From: a virus
Lineage: Duplodnaviria > Heunggongvirae > Uroviricota > Caudoviricetes
Length of the DNA stretch: 15,755 bases
Direction: 5' to 3' (one strand)
Virus record (IMG/VR): IMGVR_UViG_2690316188_000011
A program made the position numbers and the translations under genes. The notes beneath the pieces were generated by a model. It did not search any database and was not told the origin of the DNA. It was given only the letters and a program-made list of their open reading frames with translations. Positions 298 to 15,447 of this stretch are shown here, piece by piece (the first letter of the stretch is position 1; each line of letters begins with the position of its first letter).

Positions 298-323
<26 letters not shown>
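1..323 (+). CDS. nu1: Terminase small subunit gpNu1, 3' portion (gene wraps the circular junction; 5' portion at 15448-15755)
   Basis: Frame enters at the window edge with no start codon. Translation (...[55 protein letters not shown]...EYIEQSG) is the C-terminal half of lambda Nu1 as I recall it. Bases 1-85 are identical to 15671-15755. The stop at 321-323 lies 26 nt inside the next gene, as in lambda. The ORF-track entry 99-323 is an internal Met of this gene. Confidence 0.95.
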
Positions 324-4004
<3,681 letters not shown>

Positions 4005-4024
<20 letters not shown>

Positions 4025-5324
4025 TCTCCCGCATATTGCCAGCATGGCCTTTAATGAGCCGCTGATGCTTGAACCCGCCTATGCGCGGGTTTTCTTTTGT
4101 GCGCTTGCAGGCCAGCTTGGGATCAGCCGCCTGACGGATGCGGTGTCCGGCGACAGCCTGACTGCCCAGGAGGCACTCGCGACGCTGGCATTATCCGGTG
4201 ATGATGACGGACCACGACAGGCCCGCAGTTATCAGGTCATGAACGGCATCGCCGTGCTGCCGGTGTCCGGCACGCTGGTCAGCCGGACGCGGGCGCTGCA
4301 GCCGTACTCGGGGATGACCGGTTACAACGGCATTATCGCCCGTCTGCAACAGGCTGCCAGCGACCCGATGGTGGACGGCATTCTGCTCGATATGGACACG
4401 CCAGGCGGAATGGTGGCGGGGGCATTTGACTGCGCTGACATCATCGCCCGTGTGCGAGACATAAAACCGGTATGGGCGCTGGCCAACGACATGAACTGCA
4501 GTGCAGGTCAGCTGCTTGCCAGTGCCGCCTCCCGGCGTCTGGTCACGCAGACCGCCCGGACAGGCTCCATCGGCGTCATGATGGCTCACAGTAATTACGG
4601 TGCTGCCCTGGAGAAACAGGGTGTGGAAATCACGCTGATTTACAGCGGCAGCCATAAGGTGGATGGCAATCCCTACAGCCATCTTCCGGATGACGTCCGG
4701 GAGACACTGCAGTCCCGGATGGACGCAACCCGCCAGATGTTTGCGCAGAAGGTGTCGGCATATACCGGCCTGTCTGTGCAGGCTGTGCTGGATACCGAGG
4801 CTGCAGTGTACAGCGGTCAGGAGGCCATTGATGCCGGACTGGCTGATGAACTTGTTAACAGCACCGATGCGATCACCGTCATGCGTGATGCACTGGATGC
4901 GCGTAAATCCCGTCTCTCAGGAGGACGAATGACCAAAGAGACTCAATCAACAACTGTTTCAGCCACTGCTTCGCAGACTGACGTTACTGACGTGGTGCCA
5001 GCGACGGAGGGCGAAAACGCCAGCGCGGCGCAGCCGGACGTGAACGCGCAGATCACCGCTGCGGTTGCGGCAGAAAATAGCCGCATTATGGGGATCCTCA
5101 ACTGTGAGGAGGCTCACGGACGCGAAGAACAGGCCCGCGTGCTGGCAGAAACCCCCGGTATGACCGTGGAAACGGCCCGCCGCATTCTGGCAGCTGCACC
5201 ACAGAGTGCACAGGCGCGCAGTGACACTGCGCTGGATCGTCTGATGCAGGGGGCACCGGCACCGCTGGCTGCAGGTAACCCGGCATCTGATGCCGTTAAC
5301 GATTTGCTGAACACACCAGTGTAA
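4005..5324 (+). CDS. C: Capsid assembly protease / minor capsid protein gpC (GTG start)
   Basis: The ORF-track frame 3858-5324 contains the lambda gpC sequence from VTAELRNLPHIASMAFNEPLMLEP onward. GTG at 4005 is in frame and preceded by GAGGAGGAG (3992-4000); this gives a 439-aa product, the length of lambda gpC. The 5' end overlaps the B stop at 4022-4024. Confidence 0.9.
4719..5324 (+). CDS. nu3: Scaffolding protein Nu3, nested in frame within the 3' part of C
   Basis: In lambda, Nu3 is translated from an internal in-frame start in the last third of C. An in-frame ATG (MDATRQMFAQKVSAYTGL...) is present at 4719, the equivalent position. Not distinguishable from C by sequence alone. Confidence 0.55.
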   Translation: MDATRQMFAQKVSAYTGLSVQAVLDTEAAVYSGQEAIDAGLADELVNSTDAITVMRDALDARKSRLSGGRMTKETQSTTVSATASQTDVTDVVPATEGENASAAQPDVNAQITAAVAAENSRIMGILNCEEAHGREEQARVLAETPGMTVETARRILAAAPQSAQARSDTALDRLMQGAPAPLAAGNPASDAVNDLLNTPV

Positions 5325-5333
5325 GGGATGTTT

Positions 5334-5666
5334 ATGACGAGCAAAGAAACCTTTACCCATTACCAGCCGCTGGGCAACAGTGACCCGGCACATACGGCAA
5401 CCGCGCCCGGCGGATTGAGTGCGAAAGCGCCTGCAATGACCCCGCTGATGCTGGACACCTCCACCCGTAAGCTGGTTGCGTGGGATGGCACCACCGACGG
5501 TACTGCCGTTGGCATTCTGGCGGTTGATGCTGACCAGACCAGCACCACGCTGACGTTCTACAAGTCCGGCACGTTCCGTTATGAGGATGTGCTCTGGCCG
5601 GAGGCTGCCAGCGACGAGACGAAAAAACGGACCGCGTTTGCCGGAACGGCAATCAGCATCGTTTAA
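5334..5666 (+). CDS. D: Head decoration protein gpD
   Basis: 110-aa product from ATG 5334 ([43 protein letters not shown]...[11 protein letters not shown]) matches lambda gpD with about three substitutions. RBS AGGGA upstream. The ORF-track start at 5328 adds two residues absent from lambda D. Confidence 0.95.
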
Positions 5667-5684
5667 CCTTACCCTTCATCACTA

Positions 5685-5708
5685 AAGGCCGCCTGTGCGG
5701 CTTTTTTT
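5685..5708 (+). terminator. Hairpin plus T-run in the D-E intergenic region (attenuator/terminator-like)
   Basis: GCCGC (5688-5692), loop CTGT, GCGGC (5697-5701), then TTTTTTT (5702-5708). Sits in the 55-nt D-E gap, the same spacing as lambda. Confidence 0.4.
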
Positions 5709-5721
5709 ACGGGATTTTTTT

Positions 5722-5997
5722 ATGTCGATGTACACAACCGCCCAGCTGCTGGCGGCAAATGAGAAGAAATTTAAGTTTGATCCGCTGTTTCTGCGTCTCT
5801 TTTTCCGTGAGAGCTATCCCTTCACCACGGAGAAAGTCTATCTCTCACAAATTCCGGGACTGGTAAACATGGCGCTGTACGTTTCGCCGATTGTTTCCGG
5901 TGAGGTTATCCGCTCCCGTGGCGGCTCCACCTCTGAATTTACACCGGGATATGTCAAGCCGAAGCACTTAGCATGGCTTTCTGAGGCTTTCGTGTAG
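5722..5997 (+). pseudogene. E: Major capsid protein gpE, truncated: 83 N-terminal codons then unrelated sequence and a stop
   Basis: ATG 5722 gives MSMYTTAQLLAANEKKFKFDPLFLRLFFRESYPFTTEKVYLSQIPGLVNMALYVSPIVSGEVIRSRGGSTSEFTPGYVKPKH, colinear with lambda gpE (341 aa in lambda). After codon H83 (ends 5966) the frame reads LAWLSEAFV-stop, which is not E sequence. Downstream DNA is AT-rich and leads into the integrase gene. Confidence 0.85.
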
Positions 5998-6129
5998 TTG
6001 CTGGTTTTTACACTTAATCTTTTGATAATAAAGAATAAGTTTATCTGGTGCTTTCACTGAATTTTCCTCGTTATCTGTGTGTTGCAATCATCTCTGTATT
6101 GCAGCTTGTATTGCTTTTTGGGGCTAAAA

Positions 6130-7365
6130 ATGGCTGGCGAGAACAAACTGAGCGACAAAGCGCTTAAAGGATATCTGGGGAAACCCAGAGAAAAGCAGAT
6201 CACCATTGCTGATGGAAAGGGGCTTTCTATTCGTGTGAGTACTAAAGGGGCTGTGAGCTTTGTTTTCTTCTACAGGTTAGCAGGTGGCCGGGCTGCTCCG
6301 GTCTGGCTAACGTTGGGTAAATATCCTGATATGTCACTCAAACAGGCAAGGGAAAAGCGCGACGAGTGCCGTGGTTGGTTGGCTGACAAACGTGATCCGC
6401 GTATCCAGATTAAGATTCAGGCTGAAGAACGCTTAAAGCCGGTCACAGTGGAGGATGCACTAAATTACTGGTATGAAAATTACTGTAAGGTGCGTCGTAA
6501 AACTCATGCTGTAACGCTTGGCAGATTTCGAAAGCATATCTTTCCCTATATCGGTCATTTGCCCGTAAATGACACTCACCTATATGAATGGCTGGACTGT
6601 TTTGACCGAATTAAACGTAATGCACCAGTTATGGCGGCGTATGTTTTTTCTGACACTAAATTAGCTCTTCGTTTTTGTCGGGTACGCCAGTACGCGACGT
6701 GTGATGCTTTAAAGGATTTGCGCATGAGTGATGTGGGGCAGATTGCAGGTAAGCGGGATCGGGTTCTGGATGAAGCCGAACTCGGCCAGCTCTGGAAGGC
6801 AATTTTTGTCGAGCCTGATTTAAAACTAATGTCTGAATACACGCGAAAAATGTTTGTGCTTTGTACAGTATTTGGATGTCGAATGAGTGAAGCCCGATTA
6901 TCAGAATGGAGCGAATGGGATCTCGAAAGTTGGGTTTGGACTGTACCAAAAGATCACTCAAAAACTGGTGTTGAAATCGTCAGACCAGTACCTGAAATTC
7001 TACGACAGTGGGTAACGGATGTTCACGAAGAGACAAAACATACTGGTTATGTGCTGGGAAGTCTGCGAATTAGAGAAAGCGTAAGCAAGATTGGGGGGAA
7101 AATCGGTAAACGTTTGGGCCATGAAAAACAATGGTCACTACACGACCTTAGAAGAACGCTATCTACTCATCTAAGTGATCTCGGTGTTGAATTTTATGTA
7201 GTAGAACAACTGTTAGGCCATGCGCTACCTGGCGTGGCAGGTGTTTACAACCGGAGTAAGTTTATGGCTAAAAAACTGGATGCTCTGGAACTCTGGACTA
7301 CATATCTCAATAGCATCGCAGGTGCTGATTCAAAAGTGACAATCCTCAAACAAAAGGCTGGTTAA
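6130..7365 (+). CDS. int: Tyrosine recombinase / integrase, P4-family (PICI / CP4-57-like)
   Basis: Catalytic signature residues are visible: R in GCRMSEARL, H-x-x-R in SLHDLRRTL, H in LLGHALPG, Y in GVYNRSKF. Basic N-terminal arm-binding-like domain (MAGENKLSDKALKGYLGKPREKQITIADGKGLSIRV). Start placed at ATG 6130 rather than the upstream ORF-track start at 6079. Confidence 0.9.
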   Translation: MAGENKLSDKALKGYLGKPREKQITIADGKGLSIRVSTKGAVSFVFFYRLAGGRAAPVWLTLGKYPDMSLKQAREKRDECRGWLADKRDPRIQIKIQAEERLKPVTVEDALNYWYENYCKVRRKTHAVTLGRFRKHIFPYIGHLPVNDTHLYEWLDCFDRIKRNAPVMAAYVFSDTKLALRFCRVRQYATCDALKDLRMSDVGQIAGKRDRVLDEAELGQLWKAIFVEPDLKLMSEYTRKMFVLCTVFGCRMSEARLSEWSEWDLESWVWTVPKDHSKTGVEIVRPVPEILRQWVTDVHEETKHTGYVLGSLRIRESVSKIGGKIGKRLGHEKQWSLHDLRRTLSTHLSDLGVEFYVVEQLLGHALPGVAGVYNRSKFMAKKLDALELWTTYLNSIAGADSKVTILKQKAG

Positions 7366-7366
7366 C

Positions 7367-7588
7367 ATGAAAAAAATGGCAATTGTCGATAAAAAGGGTC
7401 TGGAGTACATTCCTAATATCGATCGTATGATCCGTGAGAAAGAATGTCGGGAGCTAACCACTCTTGCGAACAGCACACGCTGGAAGCTGGAGAAGGAAGG
7501 AAAATTTCCTAAGCGGATCAAGATTGGTTCCACTGCTGTTGCATATCGTCTTTCAGAAGTGCAGGCATGGATTAGGGGAGAGTGGTAA
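7367..7588 (+). CDS. alpA: AlpA-family HTH regulator / excisionase-like protein
   Basis: 73 aa; core ELTTLANSTRWKLEKEGKFPKRIKIGSTAVAYRLSEVQAWI fits the AlpA/MerR-like winged-HTH pattern. Lies immediately after int (stop TAA 7363-7365, start 7367), the usual int-alpA arrangement of Gram-negative PICI/P4-like elements. Confidence 0.8.
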   Translation: MKKMAIVDKKGLEYIPNIDRMIREKECRELTTLANSTRWKLEKEGKFPKRIKIGSTAVAYRLSEVQAWIRGEW

Positions 7589-7607: not shown

Positions 7608-7634
7608 AATCCTATGGGGTAAACCCATAGGATT
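7608..7634. terminator. Hairpin between convergent genes (candidate bidirectional terminator)
   Basis: AATCCTATGGG (7608-7618), loop GTAAA, CCCATAGGATT (7624-7634): perfect 11-bp stem. Lies between the alpA stop (7588) and the stop of the leftward 449-aa gene (7640). No strong T-tract on either side, so terminator function is uncertain. Confidence 0.4.
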
Positions 7635-7639
7635 TGAAA

Positions 7640-8989
7640 TCACTTAAATTCAAATACGTGCGTAGTTGATGAGATTATATAATTAGGTGGTAAGTATTGA
7701 ACTATTTCTCCATCTTCTTCAAAAATATGAATAACTCTTGGGAATAATTCAGGGCGTATAGGATTTAATGCCTTCGGATTATGAAACATGTATATTGCTG
7801 TACACCATGGTTCTTGATATGAAGGTGCATTGACAAGAGCAGTAAAAGGCATTGGGGTACAGCCTTCATCAGTTTTAATACCTCTAACGATGGATTTGAC
7901 ATTTTTTTGTTCAATCCCTGCCACTACTCCCATCCTATCAAATTTTGGGATGGTGGCATGTGTCGCAAGTAATATGGCTGAGACATTCTCATTTTTATTA
8001 GAGCCGAAAAAATTAGATTGTATACTTCGATTTTCAAATAAATGTTGTTCAATTTTACTTCCAGAATCCATATCTACACCATACAGATAGCTTTGTAGTG
8101 CTGGCATTGATATACTCATCGAAAATCTGCGTGAGTAATCGTGTAAAGCAATAATGAAAGGCTTTCCTTTTGTATGATCTAGTTCCCAATAGCATAATTT
8201 TAAGGGTTCAGGTTTATGCCTAACTTTCTTTAATAGAGTGCGGGCAAATTTGAATGGCATTTGTTCTTTTACATATCTCTGAAGATCTTCTACTGCCTCA
8301 TGATCAAGTATCAATTTCTCGGTAGGTTCCTCTTGTTCTGCAACTGTGGCAGCTTCTACAGCAATATCAATGCCATTTTTTGAGATAATATAATCAGGTT
8401 GAGCATAATCTCTGCATATTACGAAATCCATTTCGTAGAAAACTGCGTTTAGATAAAGTTCGAATAAGCGAGAGTTAAATGAAGCACTCTGGAAATCTCT
8501 GATGAATATTCCATCAGGATCTTTACACCAATAAGCTAACTCTTGCATAACAATAAATGCAGGATAGTGTTTGGGTTCCTCAAGTAGCATTCTTAGATAA
8601 ACGTTTTTTTTATGTTCTGGAACTTTGGCTAGGAATATTGAAAATGCCGACTCTGATTCGTCACCCTGTATAAAACAACCGTTCTTGTGTAGTGATAATA
8701 GCTCTGGTATGGCTTTTTCCATATCAGTAATTAAATCATCTTTAGATTCACGGGATACAATTACTTTAATCGCTCTAAATTTTTTATCTAAATCCCTACC
8801 TAGAAATATAGCGTTGTAATCATTATCTATTTTACAAAAAACAATTGTTGCTAAGATCGTGACATCATCCTTTATAAATTTGAACCAACAGATTTCCTCC
8901 GAAAAGGTTTTTACGTATGGTGTACGACCATAGAAAAATACATCAAATTGTTCTTTACTGATTTCTAGCATTTTGTGACTTGTTGTCAT
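7640..8989 (-). CDS. Hypothetical 449-aa protein, no family recognised; candidate defence/exclusion cargo
   Basis: Long uninterrupted minus-strand ORF in a visibly AT-rich segment. ATG at 8989 is preceded by AAGGA about 8 nt upstream. Starts 23 nt after the upstream RHH gene stop on the same strand (operon-like). I recognise no catalytic motif with confidence. Confidence 0.7.
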   Translation of the reverse strand: MTTSHKMLEISKEQFDVFFYGRTPYVKTFSEEICWFKFIKDDVTILATIVFCKIDNDYNAIFLGRDLDKKFRAIKVIVSRESKDDLITDMEKAIPELLSLHKNGCFIQGDESESAFSIFLAKVPEHKKNVYLRMLLEEPKHYPAFIVMQELAYWCKDPDGIFIRDFQSASFNSRLFELYLNAVFYEMDFVICRDYAQPDYIISKNGIDIAVEAATVAEQEEPTEKLILDHEAVEDLQRYVKEQMPFKFARTLLKKVRHKPEPLKLCYWELDHTKGKPFIIALHDYSRRFSMSISMPALQSYLYGVDMDSGSKIEQHLFENRSIQSNFFGSNKNENVSAILLATHATIPKFDRMGVVAGIEQKNVKSIVRGIKTDEGCTPMPFTALVNAPSYQEPWCTAIYMFHNPKALNPIRPELFPRVIHIFEEDGEIVQYLPPNYIISSTTHVFEFK

Positions 8990-9012: not shown

Positions 9013-9207
9013 TCAGCCTTTAGGTGTTATTCCTTGTTTTATTAGTTCGGCACGAGCCAGTTCTTTTAGCCAGTTACCTAAGCTCATCCCTTCTTTGGCA
9101 GCGACATTAACCATTTGTTCTTTTAATTCTGGGTTAATACGGACTTGGAATGCTGGTGCTTTACCTGCACCTTTCGGTTGTTTATCACGTTGAATGATAG
9201 TTGACAT
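9013..9207 (-). CDS. Ribbon-helix-helix (Arc/MetJ/CopG-like) DNA-binding protein
   Basis: 64 aa, MSTIIQRDKQPKGAGKAPAFQVRINPELKEQMVNVAAKEGMSLGNWLKELARAELIKQGITPKG. An alternating beta-strand segment (PAFQVRINP) followed by two short helices fits the RHH fold pattern. First gene of the leftward operon; a perfect inverted repeat abuts its start codon. Confidence 0.7.
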   Translation of the reverse strand: MSTIIQRDKQPKGAGKAPAFQVRINPELKEQMVNVAAKEGMSLGNWLKELARAELIKQGITPKG

Positions 9208-9249
9208 GTGTGTACCTATTGCTTAGTATGATTCTTGATAGGTACACAC
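9208..9249. promoter_or_regulatory. Operator-like perfect 12-bp inverted repeat in the divergent promoter region
   Basis: GTGTGTACCTAT (9208-9219) and ATAGGTACACAC (9238-9249) are exact reverse complements, 18 bp apart. The left arm directly abuts the RHH start codon. An extended -10-like TGcTATATA lies at 9265-9273, oriented rightward. Confidence 0.5.
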
Positions 9250-9346
9250 CTTATCATGTTTTATTGCTATATAACAACGCCCTGCAGTGCTCGCAACACA
9301 TACAGGGCGTCTAACCACCAACGATAGCAACAGTATCGAGGTAGCT

Positions 9347-9550
9347 ATGAGAAATCATACCACACACCCGCAAGGGCGGGATTCGCACAACCTGAATAAA
9401 TACATCTGGCGTTTTATCGCCCTGAGCACCGCACAACCACGCGTAATACACATCGAGGCCGCCAGCGAACAGGAAGCCCGCCAGCAATCCCCAACTGGCT
9501 ACGTGATGATATTCGCCGCCCGTATTCGTCAGGAGGTGTGCCGTGCTTAA
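9347..9550 (+). CDS. Hypothetical small protein (67 aa), weakly supported
   Basis: ATG 9347 preceded by GAGG (9338-9341). Its stop overlaps the next gene's start. No recognisable domain. A 98-aa ORF on the opposite strand (9311-9607) overlaps it and cannot be excluded. Confidence 0.3.
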   Translation: MRNHTTHPQGRDSHNLNKYIWRFIALSTAQPRVIHIEAASEQEARQQSPTGYVMIFAARIRQEVCRA

Positions 9551-10158: not shown

Positions 10159-10458
10159 ATGGAAATGAAAAATTCTGGCTTTATTGCCAGCGGCCCCGCT
10201 CGGCCTGAATTTATGAACGGCGATATTTACCGCGATAAATACGGCGGCACGGTAACGATTAAAGGCGTGGCAGAACGGCGCATCACTTACCGCCGTGAGG
10301 GGTATAGCTATGACTGCGTGATGCCTGTTTATCAGTTCCGGCGTGATTTTTCCCTGGTATATGCCGCACCCCGCAGTAAGCCCATCAGCAGGGAAAAAGC
10401 GCGGGGAAACATCCAGAAAATGAAAAGCATGATTAACGCATTCAGGGGCAAAAAATGA
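10159..10458 (+). CDS. Hypothetical 99-aa protein, translationally coupled to the primase gene
   Basis: ATG 10159 with GAGGAA (10145-10150) upstream. Stop TGA 10456-10458 overlaps the primase ATG 10455 (ATGA). Confidence 0.6.
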   Translation: MEMKNSGFIASGPARPEFMNGDIYRDKYGGTVTIKGVAERRITYRREGYSYDCVMPVYQFRRDFSLVYAAPRSKPISREKARGNIQKMKSMINAFRGKK

Positions 10459-12206
10459 AACTGGCACCGAACTTAAAAAAACAGCCACGCGACAGACTGA
10501 CAGAGGTAATCATCTTTGCAGGTAGTGATGCGTGGAGCCATGCGAAAGAGTGGCGGGAATGGGCGGGTAAACATATTGCCGCCGACGATGTGCCGCCTGT
10601 CGTGCTGGCTGATGAGCAACTGAAAAATATCACCGATTACCGGATCATTGATGAAGATCGTCAGTGTGTGCGTGTTTACCGCGCAGGACATATCACAGAG
10701 CACAGCATGACGCAGATTGTTACGTTACTGGCTGTGGCTGGAGTGAAGACCGTACACGAATACGCGGGGATTACTGACACCAGCCCAGTGGATTTATCCG
10801 AGCAGTTGCCGCGACTCAAAGAGGAATGCGAGCGTGGGGAAAGTCTGGTGCTTAATCTTCCGACGAAGCAAAAGGCGCAACTTTCACAGATGGCAGACAG
10901 TGAACGTGCACAACTACTTGCCGATCGCTTTGATGGTGTGTGTGTTCATGCAGAAAGTGAAATCGTCCACGTATGGCGCGGCGGGGTATGGTGTCCGGTC
11001 AGCACAATGGAGCTGAGCCGCGAAATGGTGGCGATCTATTCAGAGCACAGGGCCACGTTCAGCAAACGTGTAATCAATAACGCCGTGGAAGCGTTAAAAG
11101 TTATTGCCGACCCCATGGGGGAGCCGTCCGGTGATTTGCTACCGTTCACTAATGGTGTGCTTAACCTGAAAACGGGGGAATTTTCTCCGCACTCGCCGGA
11201 GCACTGGAGCACCACGCACAATGGCATTGAGTACACGCCACCAGTAGCAGGGGAAAACATCCGCGATAATGCGCCAAATTTCCATAAATGGCTTGAACAT
11301 GCTGCAAGAAAAGACCCGCGTAAGATGATGCGTATATGTGCCGCGTTATACATGATTATGGCGAACCGCTACGACTGGCAGATGTTCATTGAGGCCACCG
11401 GAGACGGGGGAAGCGGTAAGAGTACATTTACCCATATTGCCACCCTGCTTGCTGGCAAACAGAACACCGTAAGCGCGGAGATGACATCACTCGATGATGC
11501 AGGAGGGCGCGCGCAGGTTGTCGGGAGTCGTCTTATCGTCCTTGCCGATCAGCCGAAATATACGGGGGAAGGCACGGGCATCAAGAAAATCACGGGAGGC
11601 GATCCCGTTGAAATTAACCCGAAATATGAGAAGCGATTCACGACGATAATAAGGGCGGTGGTACTGGCAACCAATAACGACCCGATGATCTTTACCGAAC
11701 GGGCCGGAGGTGTGTCACGCCGTCGGGTGATTTTCCGGTTCGACAACATTGTAAGGGAGGACGAAAAAGACAAGGAATTACCGGAAAAGATAGCGGCAGA
11801 AATCCCCGTAATTATCCGCCGCTTGCTGGCTAATTTTGCTGCCCCTGAAAAGGCACGGGCTTTATTACTGGAACAGCGTGACGGTGATGAAGCTCTGGCA
11901 ATAAAGCAGCAAACGGATCCGGTTGTTGAGCTTTGCGCGGCGCTGGAGTTTCTGGAGGAAGCTCGTGGGCTAATGATGGGCGGTGGTGGTGACACCGTGA
12001 AGTACACGACCAGAAACAGCCTTTACCGTGTCTATATGGCCTTCATGGCATACACAGGAAAGGGGAAATGTTTGAGCGTGAATGAGTTCGGAAAGGCTAT
12101 GAGGTCAGCGGCGAAAGTTTACGGATATGAATATATTACGCGAAAAGTTAAGGGAGTCACGCAGACCAACGCAACGACTACTGATGATTGCGATGCGTTT
12201 TTATAA
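10455..12206 (+). CDS. Replication initiator: primase / SF3-helicase fusion (P4 alpha / D5-like NTPase)
   Basis: 583 aa. Walker A P-loop GDGGSGKST in the sequence ...FIEATGDGGSGKSTFTHIATLLAG..., with a Walker-B-like hydrophobic stretch plus acidic residue (RLIVLADQP) downstream. An iteron array follows the stop, as in P4-type and PICI pri-rep/ori modules. Confidence 0.85.
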   Translation: MKLAPNLKKQPRDRLTEVIIFAGSDAWSHAKEWREWAGKHIAADDVPPVVLADEQLKNITDYRIIDEDRQCVRVYRAGHITEHSMTQIVTLLAVAGVKTVHEYAGITDTSPVDLSEQLPRLKEECERGESLVLNLPTKQKAQLSQMADSERAQLLADRFDGVCVHAESEIVHVWRGGVWCPVSTMELSREMVAIYSEHRATFSKRVINNAVEALKVIADPMGEPSGDLLPFTNGVLNLKTGEFSPHSPEHWSTTHNGIEYTPPVAGENIRDNAPNFHKWLEHAARKDPRKMMRICAALYMIMANRYDWQMFIEATGDGGSGKSTFTHIATLLAGKQNTVSAEMTSLDDAGGRAQVVGSRLIVLADQPKYTGEGTGIKKITGGDPVEINPKYEKRFTTIIRAVVLATNNDPMIFTERAGGVSRRRVIFRFDNIVREDEKDKELPEKIAAEIPVIIRRLLANFAAPEKARALLLEQRDGDEALAIKQQTDPVVELCAALEFLEEARGLMMGGGGDTVKYTTRNSLYRVYMAFMAYTGKGKCLSVNEFGKAMRSAAKVYGYEYITRKVKGVTQTNATTTDDCDAFL

Positions 12207-12217
12207 AAAATGGCAAT

Positions 12218-12452
12218 GGTTATCTACCTTGTCTACCTGACTGAAAGAAAATACTTTTATTTCAATGTATTAATGCAGGTAGATAACTATTTTTCACTGT
12301 CTACCTGTTATCTACCTTATCTACCCATTTTTGTAGACAGGTAAGGAGACGGGTAGAGATGAGGTAGACAGCTATTTGGGGCTGTCTACCTCCCTGAAAC
12401 CCGCGCCATTACTGGCCTGATAACTAATCAGGTAGACAAGGTAGACAAGGTG
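12218..12452. repeat. Iteron array: candidate origin of replication
   Basis: About 11 copies of the core TCTACC / GGTAGA (extended TGTCTACC / GGTAGACA) in both orientations, for example 12223, 12232, 12278 (rev), 12300, 12311, 12320, 12352 (rev), 12363 (rev), 12385, 12431 (rev), 12440 (rev). An AT-rich spacer at 12241-12275 may be an unwinding element. Confidence 0.7.
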
Positions 12453-13199: not shown

Positions 13200-13217
13200 A
13201 TATTGCCAATAAAAAAA

Positions 13218-13241
13218 GCCGGAAAAAATAAATTTTCCGGC
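13218..13241 (-). terminator. Hairpin with U-tract on the minus strand (leftward terminator-like)
   Basis: GCCGGAAAA (13218-13226), loop AATAAA, TTTTCCGGC (13233-13241). The A-run at 13211-13217 becomes a U-tract 3' of the hairpin only for leftward transcripts. Confidence 0.4.
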
Positions 13242-13415
13242 ATGCTACATAAATCCCGACCAAAGGGAGTGAAGATATTAACACTAATTGTCCGCACTGA
13301 AGTTGTCACCCCAAAACTTTATACAACATTGCACTCGGTTGCATGTGTTCGCATGACAAATATCGGTGATAGCATATATCCACAATTATTTTTAATGAAT
13401 GCAAAGAGGATGCGT

Positions 13416-14456
13416 ATGGTTGATTTATATTCGCCTACCCAGCTTGTACAGGTGGTTAATGCTGTAGATGTACAAAAACAACTAAATGCGTTGTTTACCA
13501 GTTTGTTTTTTACTCGCTCGGTAATGTTTGGATCGCGCGATATTATTCTTGATACAATCGACGATCCAAATATCCCAATTGCAGCGTTTTGTTCTCCTAT
13601 GGTGGGTAGTAAAGTTTCACGTGACGAAGGGTACGAATCAAAAACAATTCGTCCAGGCTATATGAAGCCGAAAAGCAGCATTGATCCAAATAAGTTAGCT
13701 GTGCGCCCTGCTGGTGTATCACCTGAGCAATACAATGCTTTTGGGGCGCGTAATATTAAAGTTAAACAGGCGATTGTAAATCAAGCTAAAGCTATTCGTG
13801 CACGTATTGAATGGCTTGCCGTTCAGGCAATCACAACGGGGAAAAATATCATTGAGGGCGATGGTATTGAACGTTATGAGCTGGACTGGAATATTAAACC
13901 ACAAAATATCATCACTCAGTCTGGCGGTACTGAGTGGTCAGGTAAGGATAAAGAAACTTTTGATCCAAATGATGATATTGAGAGCTACGCAGAATTTAGT
14001 GAGGGCGTCACTAATATCATCATTATGGGCGGTAATGTATGGAAGAAATACCGTTCATTCAGAGCGATAAAAGAGGCTCTGGATACCCGTCGTGGTTCTA
14101 ATTCCGAACTGGAAACGGCCCTTAAAGACCTTGGTGATTCGGTGAGTTTTAAAGGATATATGGGCGATGTTGCGATTGTTGTTTACAGCGGGCGTTATAC
14201 CGACGAGGACGGAACTGAAAAACATTTCCTTGATCCTGATTTGATGGTGCTTGGCAATACGGCTCTTCAGGGGATTGTCGCCTATGGCGGTATTCAGGAT
14301 CCGGAGCTAATCCGAATGGGGCTGACTAAAGCCGAACTTGCACCGAAAAACTATATTGTGCCTGGTGATCCGGCTATTGAATATGTGCAGACACATTCAG
14401 CACCACAGCCAATACCGGCCCGCATCAATCGTTTTGTTACCGTTCGCATTGGCTAA
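13416..14456 (+). CDS. Major capsid protein, lambda gpE family, divergent paralogue
   Basis: From ATG 13416 (AGAGGA at 13405-13410): MVDLYSPTQL...RPGYMKPKS...NIITQSGGTEWSGKDKETFDPNDDIESYA...YRSFRAIKEALDTRRGSNSELETALKDLGDSVSFKGYMGDVAIVVYSGRY...MVLGNT... Colinear with lambda gpE as I recall it (E has NITQSGGTEWSKRDKSTYDPTDDIEAYA...FRSFKAVKEKLDTRRGSNSELETAVKDLGKAVSYKGMYGDVAIVVYSGQY...MVLGNT) but clearly diverged. The ORF-track start at 13203 is rejected because it runs through a hairpin and a non-coding-looking leader. Confidence 0.85.
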   Translation: MVDLYSPTQLVQVVNAVDVQKQLNALFTSLFFTRSVMFGSRDIILDTIDDPNIPIAAFCSPMVGSKVSRDEGYESKTIRPGYMKPKSSIDPNKLAVRPAGVSPEQYNAFGARNIKVKQAIVNQAKAIRARIEWLAVQAITTGKNIIEGDGIERYELDWNIKPQNIITQSGGTEWSGKDKETFDPNDDIESYAEFSEGVTNIIIMGGNVWKKYRSFRAIKEALDTRRGSNSELETALKDLGDSVSFKGYMGDVAIVVYSGRYTDEDGTEKHFLDPDLMVLGNTALQGIVAYGGIQDPELIRMGLTKAELAPKNYIVPGDPAIEYVQTHSAPQPIPARINRFVTVRIG

Positions 14457-14465
14457 GGGGGAGCA

Positions 14466-14807
14466 ATGGCTACTCATTACACTGAACTCATGGCTGGCAC
14501 TGAAGCACTGGTGACTACGCTGGGGATATTTTCAGCTAATAAAGGGGTAATTCCTGCATTTACGCCACTGATGCAGGAAGATGCAACAGGTGCACTGGTG
14601 GTATGGGATGGTTCGAGCGTAGGTAAAGCGGTTTATGTTTCCGCTGTACAAATCGACACCGCGAAAAAAACACAGGCTCAGGTCTATAAGACAGGTGTCT
14701 TAAATGTTGATGCTCTGAACTGGCCTGAGTCTGTAAAAGAACTGTCAGTAAAGATTGCAGCGTTTGTTGGCTCAGGTATTTCTGTTCAGCCGCTGGCTCG
14801 TGTGTAA
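14466..14807 (+). CDS. Head decoration protein, gpD-like, divergent paralogue
   Basis: 113 aa. Shares the gpD landmarks TPLM, WDG, YK(S/T)G, WPE and AF.G..IS (…AFTPLMQEDATGALVVWDGSSVG…QVYKTGVLNVDALNWPES…AAFVGSGISVQ) with lambda D (…[22 protein letters not shown]…[18 protein letters not shown]…[11 protein letters not shown]). RBS AAGGGGGAG. Confidence 0.75.
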   Translation: MATHYTELMAGTEALVTTLGIFSANKGVIPAFTPLMQEDATGALVVWDGSSVGKAVYVSAVQIDTAKKTQAQVYKTGVLNVDALNWPESVKELSVKIAAFVGSGISVQPLARV

Positions 14808-15227: not shown

Positions 15228-15447
15228 CGGGTCCTTTCCGGCGATCTGACAGGCTACGGGGCGTCAGGCGCGCGGATTTTCGCTATTTATGAAAATTTTC
15301 CGGTTTAAGGCGTTTCCGTTCTTCTTCGTCGTAACTTAATGTTTTTATTTAAAATACCCCCTGAAAAGAAAGGAAACGACAGGTGCTGAAAGCGAGCTTT
15401 TTGGCCTCTGTCGTTTCCTTTCTCTGTTTTTGTCCGTGGAATGAACA
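15228..15447. other. Lambdoid cos packaging site (cosQ-like, cosN-equivalent 15259-15270, cosB with R3/R2/R1 Nu1-binding elements)
   Basis: Colinear with the lambda right-end/left-end junction as I recall it. cosQ-like GGGTCCTTTCCGGCGATCTGACAGGCTACG. cosB CGCGGATTTTCGCTATTTATGAAAATTTTCCGG... with CGTTTCC at 15311-15317 (R3), GGAAACG at 15372-15378 (R2) and CGTTTCC at 15412-15418 (R1); R2 and R1 form an inverted repeat (GGAAACGACAG / CTGTCGTTTCC). Ends at the Nu1 start codon. Confidence 0.8.

Follow-up and report, generated by a model that had tools for sequence, protein, structure and literature searches.

The DNA analysed here, a 15,755-nucleotide stretch from a tailed-phage-like virus record (IMG/VR IMGVR_UViG_2690316188_000011; hereafter the window), carries at positions 9208..9249 an inverted repeat of 12-bp arms and an 18-bp spacer beside the start codon of a gene for a small Arc-like ribbon-helix-helix (RHH) protein. 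With a probability that we put at roughly 0.7, sequence comparison suggests that this repeat is a pair of operator sites at which the RHH protein would act on two overlapping promoters, one (P_R) directed into the replication operon on the right and the other (P_L) directed leftwards into the RHH gene itself and a cargo gene for the anti-phage defence protein PD-T7-1. The window element is a helper-embedded phage-inducible chromosomal island (PICI) of the 11capE type, an already known kind of satellite, and the RHH protein and its operator are an uncharacterised repressor/operator system of a known kind. The evidence that carries this reading is comparative: the sites are conserved in position, their central bases change together with predicted DNA-reading residues of the RHH protein, and the promoter motifs that they overlap are conserved as well.

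The arms of the repeat, GTGTGTACCTAT at 9208-9219 and ATAGGTACACAC at 9238-9249, are complementary at 12 of 12 positions and enclose an A/T-rich spacer of 18 nucleotides. Both direct reading and a repeat search bear out the preliminary description of this DNA on that point, i.e. a perfect 12-bp repeat with 18-bp spacing that abuts the RHH start codon. Perfect pairing ends at 9207 (T) against 9250 (C), beyond which 9206 (A) and 9251 (T) pair again. The RHH open reading frame occupies 9013-9207 on the minus strand and starts with CAT at 9205-9207 (ATG 9207..9205), so that the repeat begins at the very next base, and the Shine-Dalgarno (SD) sequence of the gene, AGGT (minus strand, AATAGGTACACACATG), is located within the left arm. 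When the window was simulated 400 times with a first-order Markov model, 1.75% of the simulations contained a perfect inverted repeat of 12 bp (spacer 0-40), a mean of 0.0175 per window. The window also contains three further inverted repeats of at least 12 bp, at 12361/12381 (among the iterons of the replication origin), 13968/14013 and 15367/15408. Size alone is therefore not distinctive, and the functional argument for the repeat at 9208-9249 comes from its conservation.

Read by its bases, the repeat is two copies of a dimer-sized site, each of which is near-palindromic in itself. The left site, O_L (ATGT-GTGT-ACCT, ATGTGTGTACCT), occupies 9206-9217, with the repeat arm running on to 9219; it shares the AT of the RHH start codon and is placed between the P_R -35 and -10 elements. 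The right site, O_R (AGGT-ACAC-ACCT, AGGTACACACCT), occupies 9240-9251, with the repeat arm starting at 9238; its outer tetrads are palindromic, and it spans approximately +3 to +15 of P_R together with the -10/+1 region of P_L. O_L is a copy of O_R on the minus strand with one mismatch, and no further copies of the operator site are present in the window. The repeat had initially been described as a single repressor operator of the size expected for a dimer or tetramer. Its operator-like character is upheld by conservation and by co-variation with the RHH protein, whereas the single site resolves into two near-palindromic sites of ~12 bp that are 34 bp apart.

We aligned 28 non-redundant homologous intergenic regions (from Escherichia, Salmonella, Klebsiella, Citrobacter, Morganella, Providencia, Edwardsiella and Rahnella) and enlarged this set by scanning viral contigs with a pattern that fixed only the promoter bases and AGGT. 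The scan returned 108 stretches, which combined with the earlier loci into 79 non-redundant regions, 75 of them with an RHH gene (63 distinct proteins). The two-site element keeps its place with respect to the RHH start codon in 28/28 of the aligned loci and again in the 75 non-redundant regions. The left 12-mer, A[T/A]GT-N4-ACCT, starts inside the RHH start codon in all 28 loci, and a right 12-mer, AGGT-N4-ACxx, follows at 33-35 bp (start to start) in nearly all regions. In the 4 of 79 regions that lack an RHH gene the left and right sites disagree; these are chance matches to the pattern and serve as built-in negative controls. A more distant example is found in the Pasteurella satellite-like element Pmp8, whose RHH protein is 36% identical and whose layout is the same, with sites 31 bp apart (GGTATATACC and GGTAATTACC) that are both perfect palindromes, TTGACA over the start codon, a -10 element (TATAGT) between the sites and an opposite-strand TGTTATGGT overlapping the right site. 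Scanning genome contigs by protein pattern returned 3 loci only. One locus with the residue code PQR (L026) was not counted as evidence: its sites are imperfect (AATT/AAAC), its context is not that of an island, and it seems to be a remnant.

The central four base pairs (N4) of both sites change together with RHH residues 19 and 21, which align to Q9 and N11 of P22 Arc, while R23 (Arc R13) is invariant. The arms co-vary in this way with the predicted DNA-reading residues over at least 10 classes. Writing each class by its residues 19, 21 and 23, A-Q-R goes with ACAC (ACRY), P-H-R with GTAC, M-N-R with CTAT, I-S-R with CCAT, Q-R-R with GGTC/GACC, Q-K-R with GGCC, A-K-R with GCGC, A-N-R with GTGT and T-Q-R with ACAT or ACGT; in one T-Q-R member the flanks are altered too, with ACGT on both sides of both sites. 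The modal N4 of its own code is present in 67 of the 75 regions, whereas 20,000 permutations gave 26 on average and at most 35. An identical code keeps an identical N4 in proteins that are only 56-81% identical and across genera: P-H-R is found with the same core in Escherichia, Morganella and Edwardsiella, and Q-R-R in Escherichia and Providencia. Proteins of the RHH superfamily read bases in the major groove with alternating side chains of the beta strand, and the co-variation at residues 19 and 21 is an indirect test that agrees with this mode of recognition. In the classes with an asymmetric core (A-Q-R, I-S-R and M-N-R) the two copies are mirror images in 26/26 cases, a pattern that descent, correction of one arm by the other or a higher-order complex with two-fold symmetry could each explain. 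Across operator classes, the Icd-like region, primase gene and origin iterons are unchanged. In fact, two loci (L022 and L023) are 98% identical to the window from ~9275 onwards and have the same iterons, yet belong to a different RHH/operator class.

The protein itself is 64 residues long (MSTIIQRDKQPKGAGKAPAFQVRINPELKEQMVNVAAKEGMSLGNWLKELARAELIKQGITPKG) and is a putative repressor with a predicted DNA-reading beta strand A19-F-Q21-V-R23. A profile of its homologues compared with PDB sequences matched P22 Arc (E=0.0013), aligning P18-A19-F20-Q21-V22-R23 with Arc P8-Q9-F10-N11-L12-R13; Q9, N11 and R13 are the base-contacting residues of Arc. The protein also matches the PHROG family 'Arc-like repressor' (E=1.2e-5). 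An AlphaFold2 monomer model (pLDDT 81) is extended over residues 18-25 with helices at 26-38 and 43-57, and its top PDB matches in Foldseek are Arc itself (1myl; TM 0.89, root-mean-square deviation 1.3 Å) and the Arc-operator complex (1par). The other PDB matches are all RHH proteins (AmrZ, CopA, DinJ), with E-values that are weak for so short a chain. Model, structural matches and profile thus agree on the strand-helix-helix fold of ~45 residues that defines the superfamily, and near-palindromic sites are consistent with the obligate dimer of RHH proteins, which would form a two-stranded ribbon.

The family comprises 616 proteins at E<=0.001, mainly from Enterobacterales with additional members in Aeromonas and Plesiomonas, and is nearly absent from phage records. 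RefSeq names its annotated members 'HicB family antitoxin' or 'YlcI/YnfO family'. We rejected identity as a HicB antitoxin: the Pfam HicB match (PF05534) scores 20.3 bits (E=5e-4), below the gathering cut-off of 21, and no HicA neighbour was found, the downstream position being taken by PD-T7-1, Abi-like, SWIM or unknown genes, or by no gene at all. The YlcI/YnfO label was likewise dropped, a scan of the window protein against NCBIfam having returned nothing beyond a MobA match below threshold. In the Q-R-R and Q-K-R classes the RHH genes start with TTG (L022, at 2741-2935 on the minus strand; L016, L023, L024 and L027), and the gene in L030 starts with GTG. The TTG-start genes are unannotated in RefSeq, which calls a pseudogene on the opposite strand, and ~161 complete E. 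coli genomes carry this variant.

The two sites are interleaved with two sets of promoter motifs. P_R, on the plus strand, was called by promoter scan and has a perfect consensus -35 element (TTGACA, 9201-9206) within RHH codons 1-3 and a -10 element (TAGTAT, 9224-9229) within the spacer, with a predicted start at ~9236-9238. The -35 is invariant in 28/28 loci, as part of an invariant GTTGACA, and a TAnnnT hexamer is found 17-18 bp from TTGACA in 27/28 loci within an otherwise variable spacer. The codon for Ser2 of the RHH protein is TCA in 28/28 genes, although other invariant residues (R7, G13, G15, P18, L28, A36, L43 and others) are each encoded by 2-5 different codons, which argues that the P_R -35 is held by selection at the DNA level. 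P_L, on the minus strand, has an extended -10 (TGATAAGGT, 9256..9248) that overlaps the outer 4 nucleotides of O_R, and a predicted start at ~9241. The corresponding motif, ACnnTAnCA after the right site (TGnTAnnGT on the minus strand), is present at a fixed offset in 28/28 loci and also in the Pasteurella homologue. A weak -35-like element for P_L (TTGTTA, 9272-9277, minus strand) can be read 18 bp upstream of its -10, and TTGnnn is visible in homologues at that position.

The predicted starts of P_R and P_L are ~5 nucleotides apart and point at each other, so that the conserved promoters overlap face to face and not back to back, as the divergent promoter region proposed in the preliminary description would have had it. 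That description also assigned the rightward operon to an extended -10 at 9265-9273. The motif is there (TGCTATATA), in the tail of a predicted minus-strand terminator, but it is not conserved, being missing in the closest divergent relative (L003, which has CTCTGGAA) and in most homologues in the family alignment. No plus-strand terminator was found between 9237 and the ATG of the Icd-like gene.

A mechanism can be proposed from these positions. Each operator site would most likely be contacted by the two-stranded beta ribbon of a single RHH dimer, whose residues 19 and 21 would read the central four base pairs. P_R, starting at ~9237, would transcribe the Icd-like/DUF4222/primase replication operon rightward, and P_L, starting at ~9241, would transcribe the RHH gene and the PD-T7-1 cargo leftward. 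RHH protein on O_L, between the -35 and -10 of P_R, and on O_R, where the P_R transcript begins, would silence the replication operon, and its presence on O_R would also cover the -10/+1 of P_L, limiting its own synthesis and that of the cargo. Proteins bound at such positions block RNA polymerase in known promoters. From the placement of O_L and O_R on P_R and P_L we infer that the RHH protein should repress the Icd-like/primase operon and autoregulate the RHH-cargo operon. Since the two starts would face each other only ~5 nucleotides apart, P_R and P_L must compete, and P_R, when firing, would run through P_L, which could stabilise the induced state. The spacing of 34-35 bp (~3.3 turns) suggests that the two sites are occupied independently, at a distance dictated by the geometry of the promoters, and not by an Arc-like tetramer. 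Repression might be lifted by a helper phage factor, by AlpA, or by transcriptional interference once P_R fires.

Immediately beyond P_L, the minus strand may encode a second regulator, a candidate cis-antisense RNA of ~80 nucleotides (~9347 to ~9268, from folding and conservation in the 28 loci) that lies opposite the 5' untranslated region, SD and AUG of the Icd-like gene. Its first hairpin is antisense to the SD, and its second (9310..9277), followed by a U-rich tail, is terminator-like and is placed just upstream of P_L. The minus strand folds in this region at z=-4.35, and two hairpins with a U-rich tail form the same structure on that strand in the 28 loci. RNAalifold identified compensatory changes in 14/20 pairs, and many pairs are G.U, which the plus strand would turn into A.C mismatches; the hairpin at 9277-9310 is best read on the minus strand. 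A candidate extended -10 for this RNA (TGGTATGAT, 9362..9354, minus strand; -10-like TATGAT at 9359..9354 with an extended TG) can be read from the sequence. The TAnnnT hexamer recurs there in homologues, within coding sequence, which makes it weak evidence. A search of the entire window against Rfam gave no match at gathering thresholds, around the repeat there was nothing but noise at E<=10, and no C4/isrK-type immunity RNA was found. A 20-nucleotide stretch of the P_R -10/start region (9226-9245) is 80% complementary to 9341-9360, which covers the Icd-like SD/ATG region and the putative antisense promoter. A third site or an interaction between RNAs was considered here and rejected, since islands of other operator classes have an identical Icd-like start and the stretch does not follow the RHH class; the similarity is probably due to chance or promoter-like.

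The two-site operator has to be weighed against four other explanations of the same repeat. That the sites serve autoregulation only, through P_L, with the replication operon controlled elsewhere (by AlpA, an antisense RNA or the 9265-9273 promoter) and TTGACA/TAGTAT not a working promoter, we regard as unlikely. AlpA is the experimentally shown activator of Gram-negative PICIs, in which a global repressor was not demonstrated (PMC6092414), the window does have the additional extended -10 at 9265-9273, and the candidate antisense RNA could provide a separate, post-transcriptional layer of control. However, the perfect -35 is kept in all loci through an invariant synonymous codon choice, 27/28 loci have TAnnnT 17-18 bp further on, neither L003 nor most homologues have the 9265-9273 element, and transcription from 9237 would meet no plus-strand terminator before the Icd-like ATG. 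It is improbable that another protein (AlpA, the Icd-like protein, or a helper phage or host factor) binds the sites and that the RHH gene is incidental: the site core follows RHH residues 19/21 while the Icd-like region, primase and iterons stay constant, and L022 and L023 combine near-identity to the window from ~9275 onwards and identical iterons with a different RHH and operator class. This holds even though AlpA-type proteins regulate these islands (PMC6092414) and the PHROG label of the Icd-like family is 'transcriptional repressor'. That the repeat arose by chance, or is a structural DNA element such as a cruciform, a replication origin or a site of recombination, is the explanation to which we give very little credence. 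The repeat is perfect and its spacer A/T-rich, but the origin iterons are elsewhere (12218-12447, behind the primase gene), integration took place within the capsid gene (junction at ~5997-6079), direct-repeat variants are tolerated, and the element is conserved in 75 regions against a chance expectation of 0.0175 per window.

The remaining explanation, that the repeat acts as an RNA hairpin in the RHH mRNA leader whose right arm, as an anti-SD, pairs with the SD AGGU of the left arm and limits translation, is quite improbable, despite a minus-strand RNA with both arms folding into a hairpin of -20.5 kcal/mol (z=-5.35) that buries the SD, and despite the compensatory nature of the arm changes. 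The start predicted from the conserved P_L falls inside the right arm, and the leader from there is unstructured (-0.7 kcal/mol); a predicted minus-strand terminator stands just upstream; and a plus-strand RNA starting at P_R, in the spacer, would be without the left arm. Mismatches between the arms show no G.U strand bias in the core (9 of plus type, 9 of minus type and 2 other), whereas the neighbouring terminator hairpin is clearly biased. The sites of the Q-R-R class are direct repeats in 7/9 non-palindromic cases (inverted in 2), giving two central mismatches, an arrangement that argues against an RNA hairpin; other members have the palindromic GGCC, and these exchanges are neutral for a two-fold symmetric protein and damaging for a hairpin. 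Each site is also near-palindromic in itself, the P-H-R class site AGGTGTACACCT and both Pasteurella sites being perfect palindromes, and the arm sequence follows RHH residues 19/21.

Several points weigh against the two-site operator, which we nevertheless prefer. Its outer AGGT/ACCT tetrads coincide with the RHH SD on the left and with the P_L -10 on the right, and part of the symmetry could come from these overlapping signals. A centre-to-centre distance of 34-35 bp, or ~3.3 turns, would place the two dimers on different faces of the DNA, making cooperative binding as a tetramer doubtful. P_R and P_L are predicted promoters, called from consensus and conservation; P_L was not returned by the two-hexamer promoter scan and is proposed from its extended -10 motif, and a possible second rightward promoter of the window at 9265-9273 could partly escape control. 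Finally, related loci share ancestry, and the co-variation statistics overstate their independence.

The surrounding genes begin with a lambda-like head module at 298-5997 (terminase A, W, portal, S49 protease, D and a capsid gene E cut after ~100 codons). The truncated E (5695-5997) is followed, beyond an integration junction at ~5997-6079, by int (6079-7365), alpA (7367-7588), a leftward 449-residue gene and the RHH gene. The rightward operon begins with the Icd-like gene (9347-9550, plus strand; NCBIfam phage_ICD_like, E=6.5e-20) and continues, from Pfam matches and the RefSeq annotation of H1, with three small open reading frames, DUF4222 and its main replication gene, a D5_N/DUF5906 primase-helicase (10455-12206, plus strand), which is followed by the origin iterons, SSB, an E-like capsid gene (13203-14456), a D-like gene (14466-14807) and an AlpA-like gene. 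The iteron GGTAGAYA is present in 10 copies in both orientations around an A/T-rich stretch at 12218-12447, just after the primase gene, a region that is probably the replication origin of the island. These iterons (AGGTAGACA) resemble the operator AGGTACACA and were considered as RHH sites; this was rejected and the likeness put down to chance, L022 and L023 having the same 10 iterons with another RHH/operator class. An inverted repeat with 12-bp perfect arms lies inside the E-like capsid gene (13968-14024), and another, with 25-nucleotide arms that are 84% complementary and a 7-nucleotide loop, lies downstream of the AlpA-like gene (15367-15423).

This order of genes is that of helper-embedded PICIs of lambdoid prophages (11capE type; Mageeney et al., 2023, PMC10111431): insertion in E, int, alpA, a dynamic zone, a replication zone with primase and SSB, and capsid and decoration genes of their own. 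The window shows the truncated E followed by int, the terminase, portal, protease and D genes upstream and its own E-like and D-like genes at 13203-14807, and RefSeq records with the same arrangement have the island inserted in the capsid gene of a lambdoid prophage. For the dynamic zone that paper reports Bro-network proteins and C4/isrK-type immunity RNAs, and a search of it by terms found no mention of an RHH repressor, its operator or this antisense RNA. In every island inspected, whatever the integration site, the order is int, alpA, variable cargo or none, and the RHH gene facing left, then the Icd-like gene facing right, DUF4222 and primase. About 1800 E. coli genomes share the rightward operon, with similarity to the window that begins only near 9275, which marks the RHH gene, repeat and promoters as an exchangeable module. 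DNA searches found the window-type module, down to 66% identity, in 111 genomes and a second type, with the TTG-start RHH gene, in 161 genomes.

The cargo of the window is the 449-residue gene at 7640-8989 on the minus strand, which matches PD-T7-1 over its full length (PADLOC, E=1.3e-153), a validated single-gene defence system (bioRxiv 10.1101/2022.05.12.491691). Related islands have an Abi-like gene, a gene for a SWIM zinc finger or unknown genes at this position, or leave it empty, in the manner of a defence/cargo hotspot that P_L would drive. With the cargo varying or absent, the RHH protein is best seen as a core regulator of the island and not as a partner of the cargo, and a role as antitoxin or partner of PD-T7-1 was rejected on the same grounds. 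The earlier proposal that one site could co-regulate a cargo operon and the replication genes therefore stands for its placement, which suits both directions, but its cargo is variable, PD-T7-1 here and other genes or none elsewhere. Between the convergent alpA (end 7588) and PD-T7-1 (end 7640) genes, an 11-bp-stem hairpin (AATCCTATGGG gtaaa CCCATAGGATT, 7608-7634) probably terminates transcription in both directions and shields the leftward operon from int-alpA and from helper late read-through.

The RHH/operator module thus offers a concrete repressor candidate for a sizeable subset of islands (111 + 161 E. coli genomes; a family of 616 proteins). The founding paper on Gram-negative PICIs identified AlpA as activator and called the global repressor 'unclear' (PMC6092414), and our literature search found no paper joining EcCICFT073 or PICIs with a relevant ribbon-helix-helix regulator. 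More speculatively, and with less than even confidence, we suggest that the RHH protein and its two-site operator are the missing master-repressor/immunity module of many Gram-negative PICIs, including helper-embedded ones, with at least 10 co-evolving specificity classes that would prevent cross-regulation of co-resident islands, and that it forms a face-to-face promoter switch together with a cis-antisense RNA over the Icd-like leader that had not been described before. Through the variable anti-phage slot, occupied here by PD-T7-1, the operator would also determine how strongly a defence gene is expressed. The specificity classes found in nature amount to a table for DNA recognition by RHH proteins, residues 19/21 against the central 4 bp, and on the practical side RefSeq mislabels the RHH protein as a HicB antitoxin and misses the gene altogether in the TTG-start class.

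Among known systems, the likeness to HicB is limited to a weak similarity to its C-terminal RHH DNA-binding part (PF05534, E=5e-4); the N-terminal HicB fold is missing in a protein of only 64 residues and there is no HicA neighbour. The position of the RHH gene is that of a PICI master repressor in all islands inspected, between int and the replication module with an intergenic operator. In this it resembles Stl/Rpr of the Staphylococcus aureus pathogenicity islands, a regulator between int and the replication module that is transcribed away from the latter (PMC6092414). Stl, however, is a larger helix-turn-helix protein unrelated to the RHH fold, and for Stl derepression by helper proteins has been demonstrated. 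The predicted arrangement of P_R and P_L can also be compared with that in other mobile elements. It resembles the face-to-face promoter switches of P2/186-type phages. In plasmids of the pMV158/pLS1 type, replication genes are controlled by an RHH repressor (CopG) together with a countertranscript (RNAII) over the leader and ribosome-binding site, a combination that would be matched here by the RHH protein and the predicted antisense RNA. There, copG is co-transcribed with repB and CopG spreads cooperatively from one 13-bp pseudosymmetric element, whereas here the RHH gene is divergent/convergent to the operon, the sites are two and discrete, and the setting is an integrated phage satellite.

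The immI region of phage P22 (Arc and Mnt; Pant/Pmnt; sar RNA) shares several features with the window. It has a small Arc-like RHH protein, which is the best PDB match in sequence and in fold, an operator within the core of a strong promoter, an opposing overlapping promoter and autoregulation. Arc binds as a tetramer to one operator of ~21 bp with half-sites ~11 bp apart, in contrast to the two 12-bp sites found here, which are 34-35 bp apart in the window (33-35 bp across the regions compared and 31 bp in Pasteurella). Furthermore, the RHH gene here would be transcribed from the opposing promoter and is not the first gene of the repressed operon, and the genes proposed to be repressed are satellite replication genes and not an antirepressor. 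An antisense RNA opposite the ribosome-binding region of the downstream gene, which we infer for the window, is known in P22 (PMC2629481). By analogy, then, the closest characterised counterparts of this module are P22 immI (PMC2629481) and plasmid control by CopG and RNAII.

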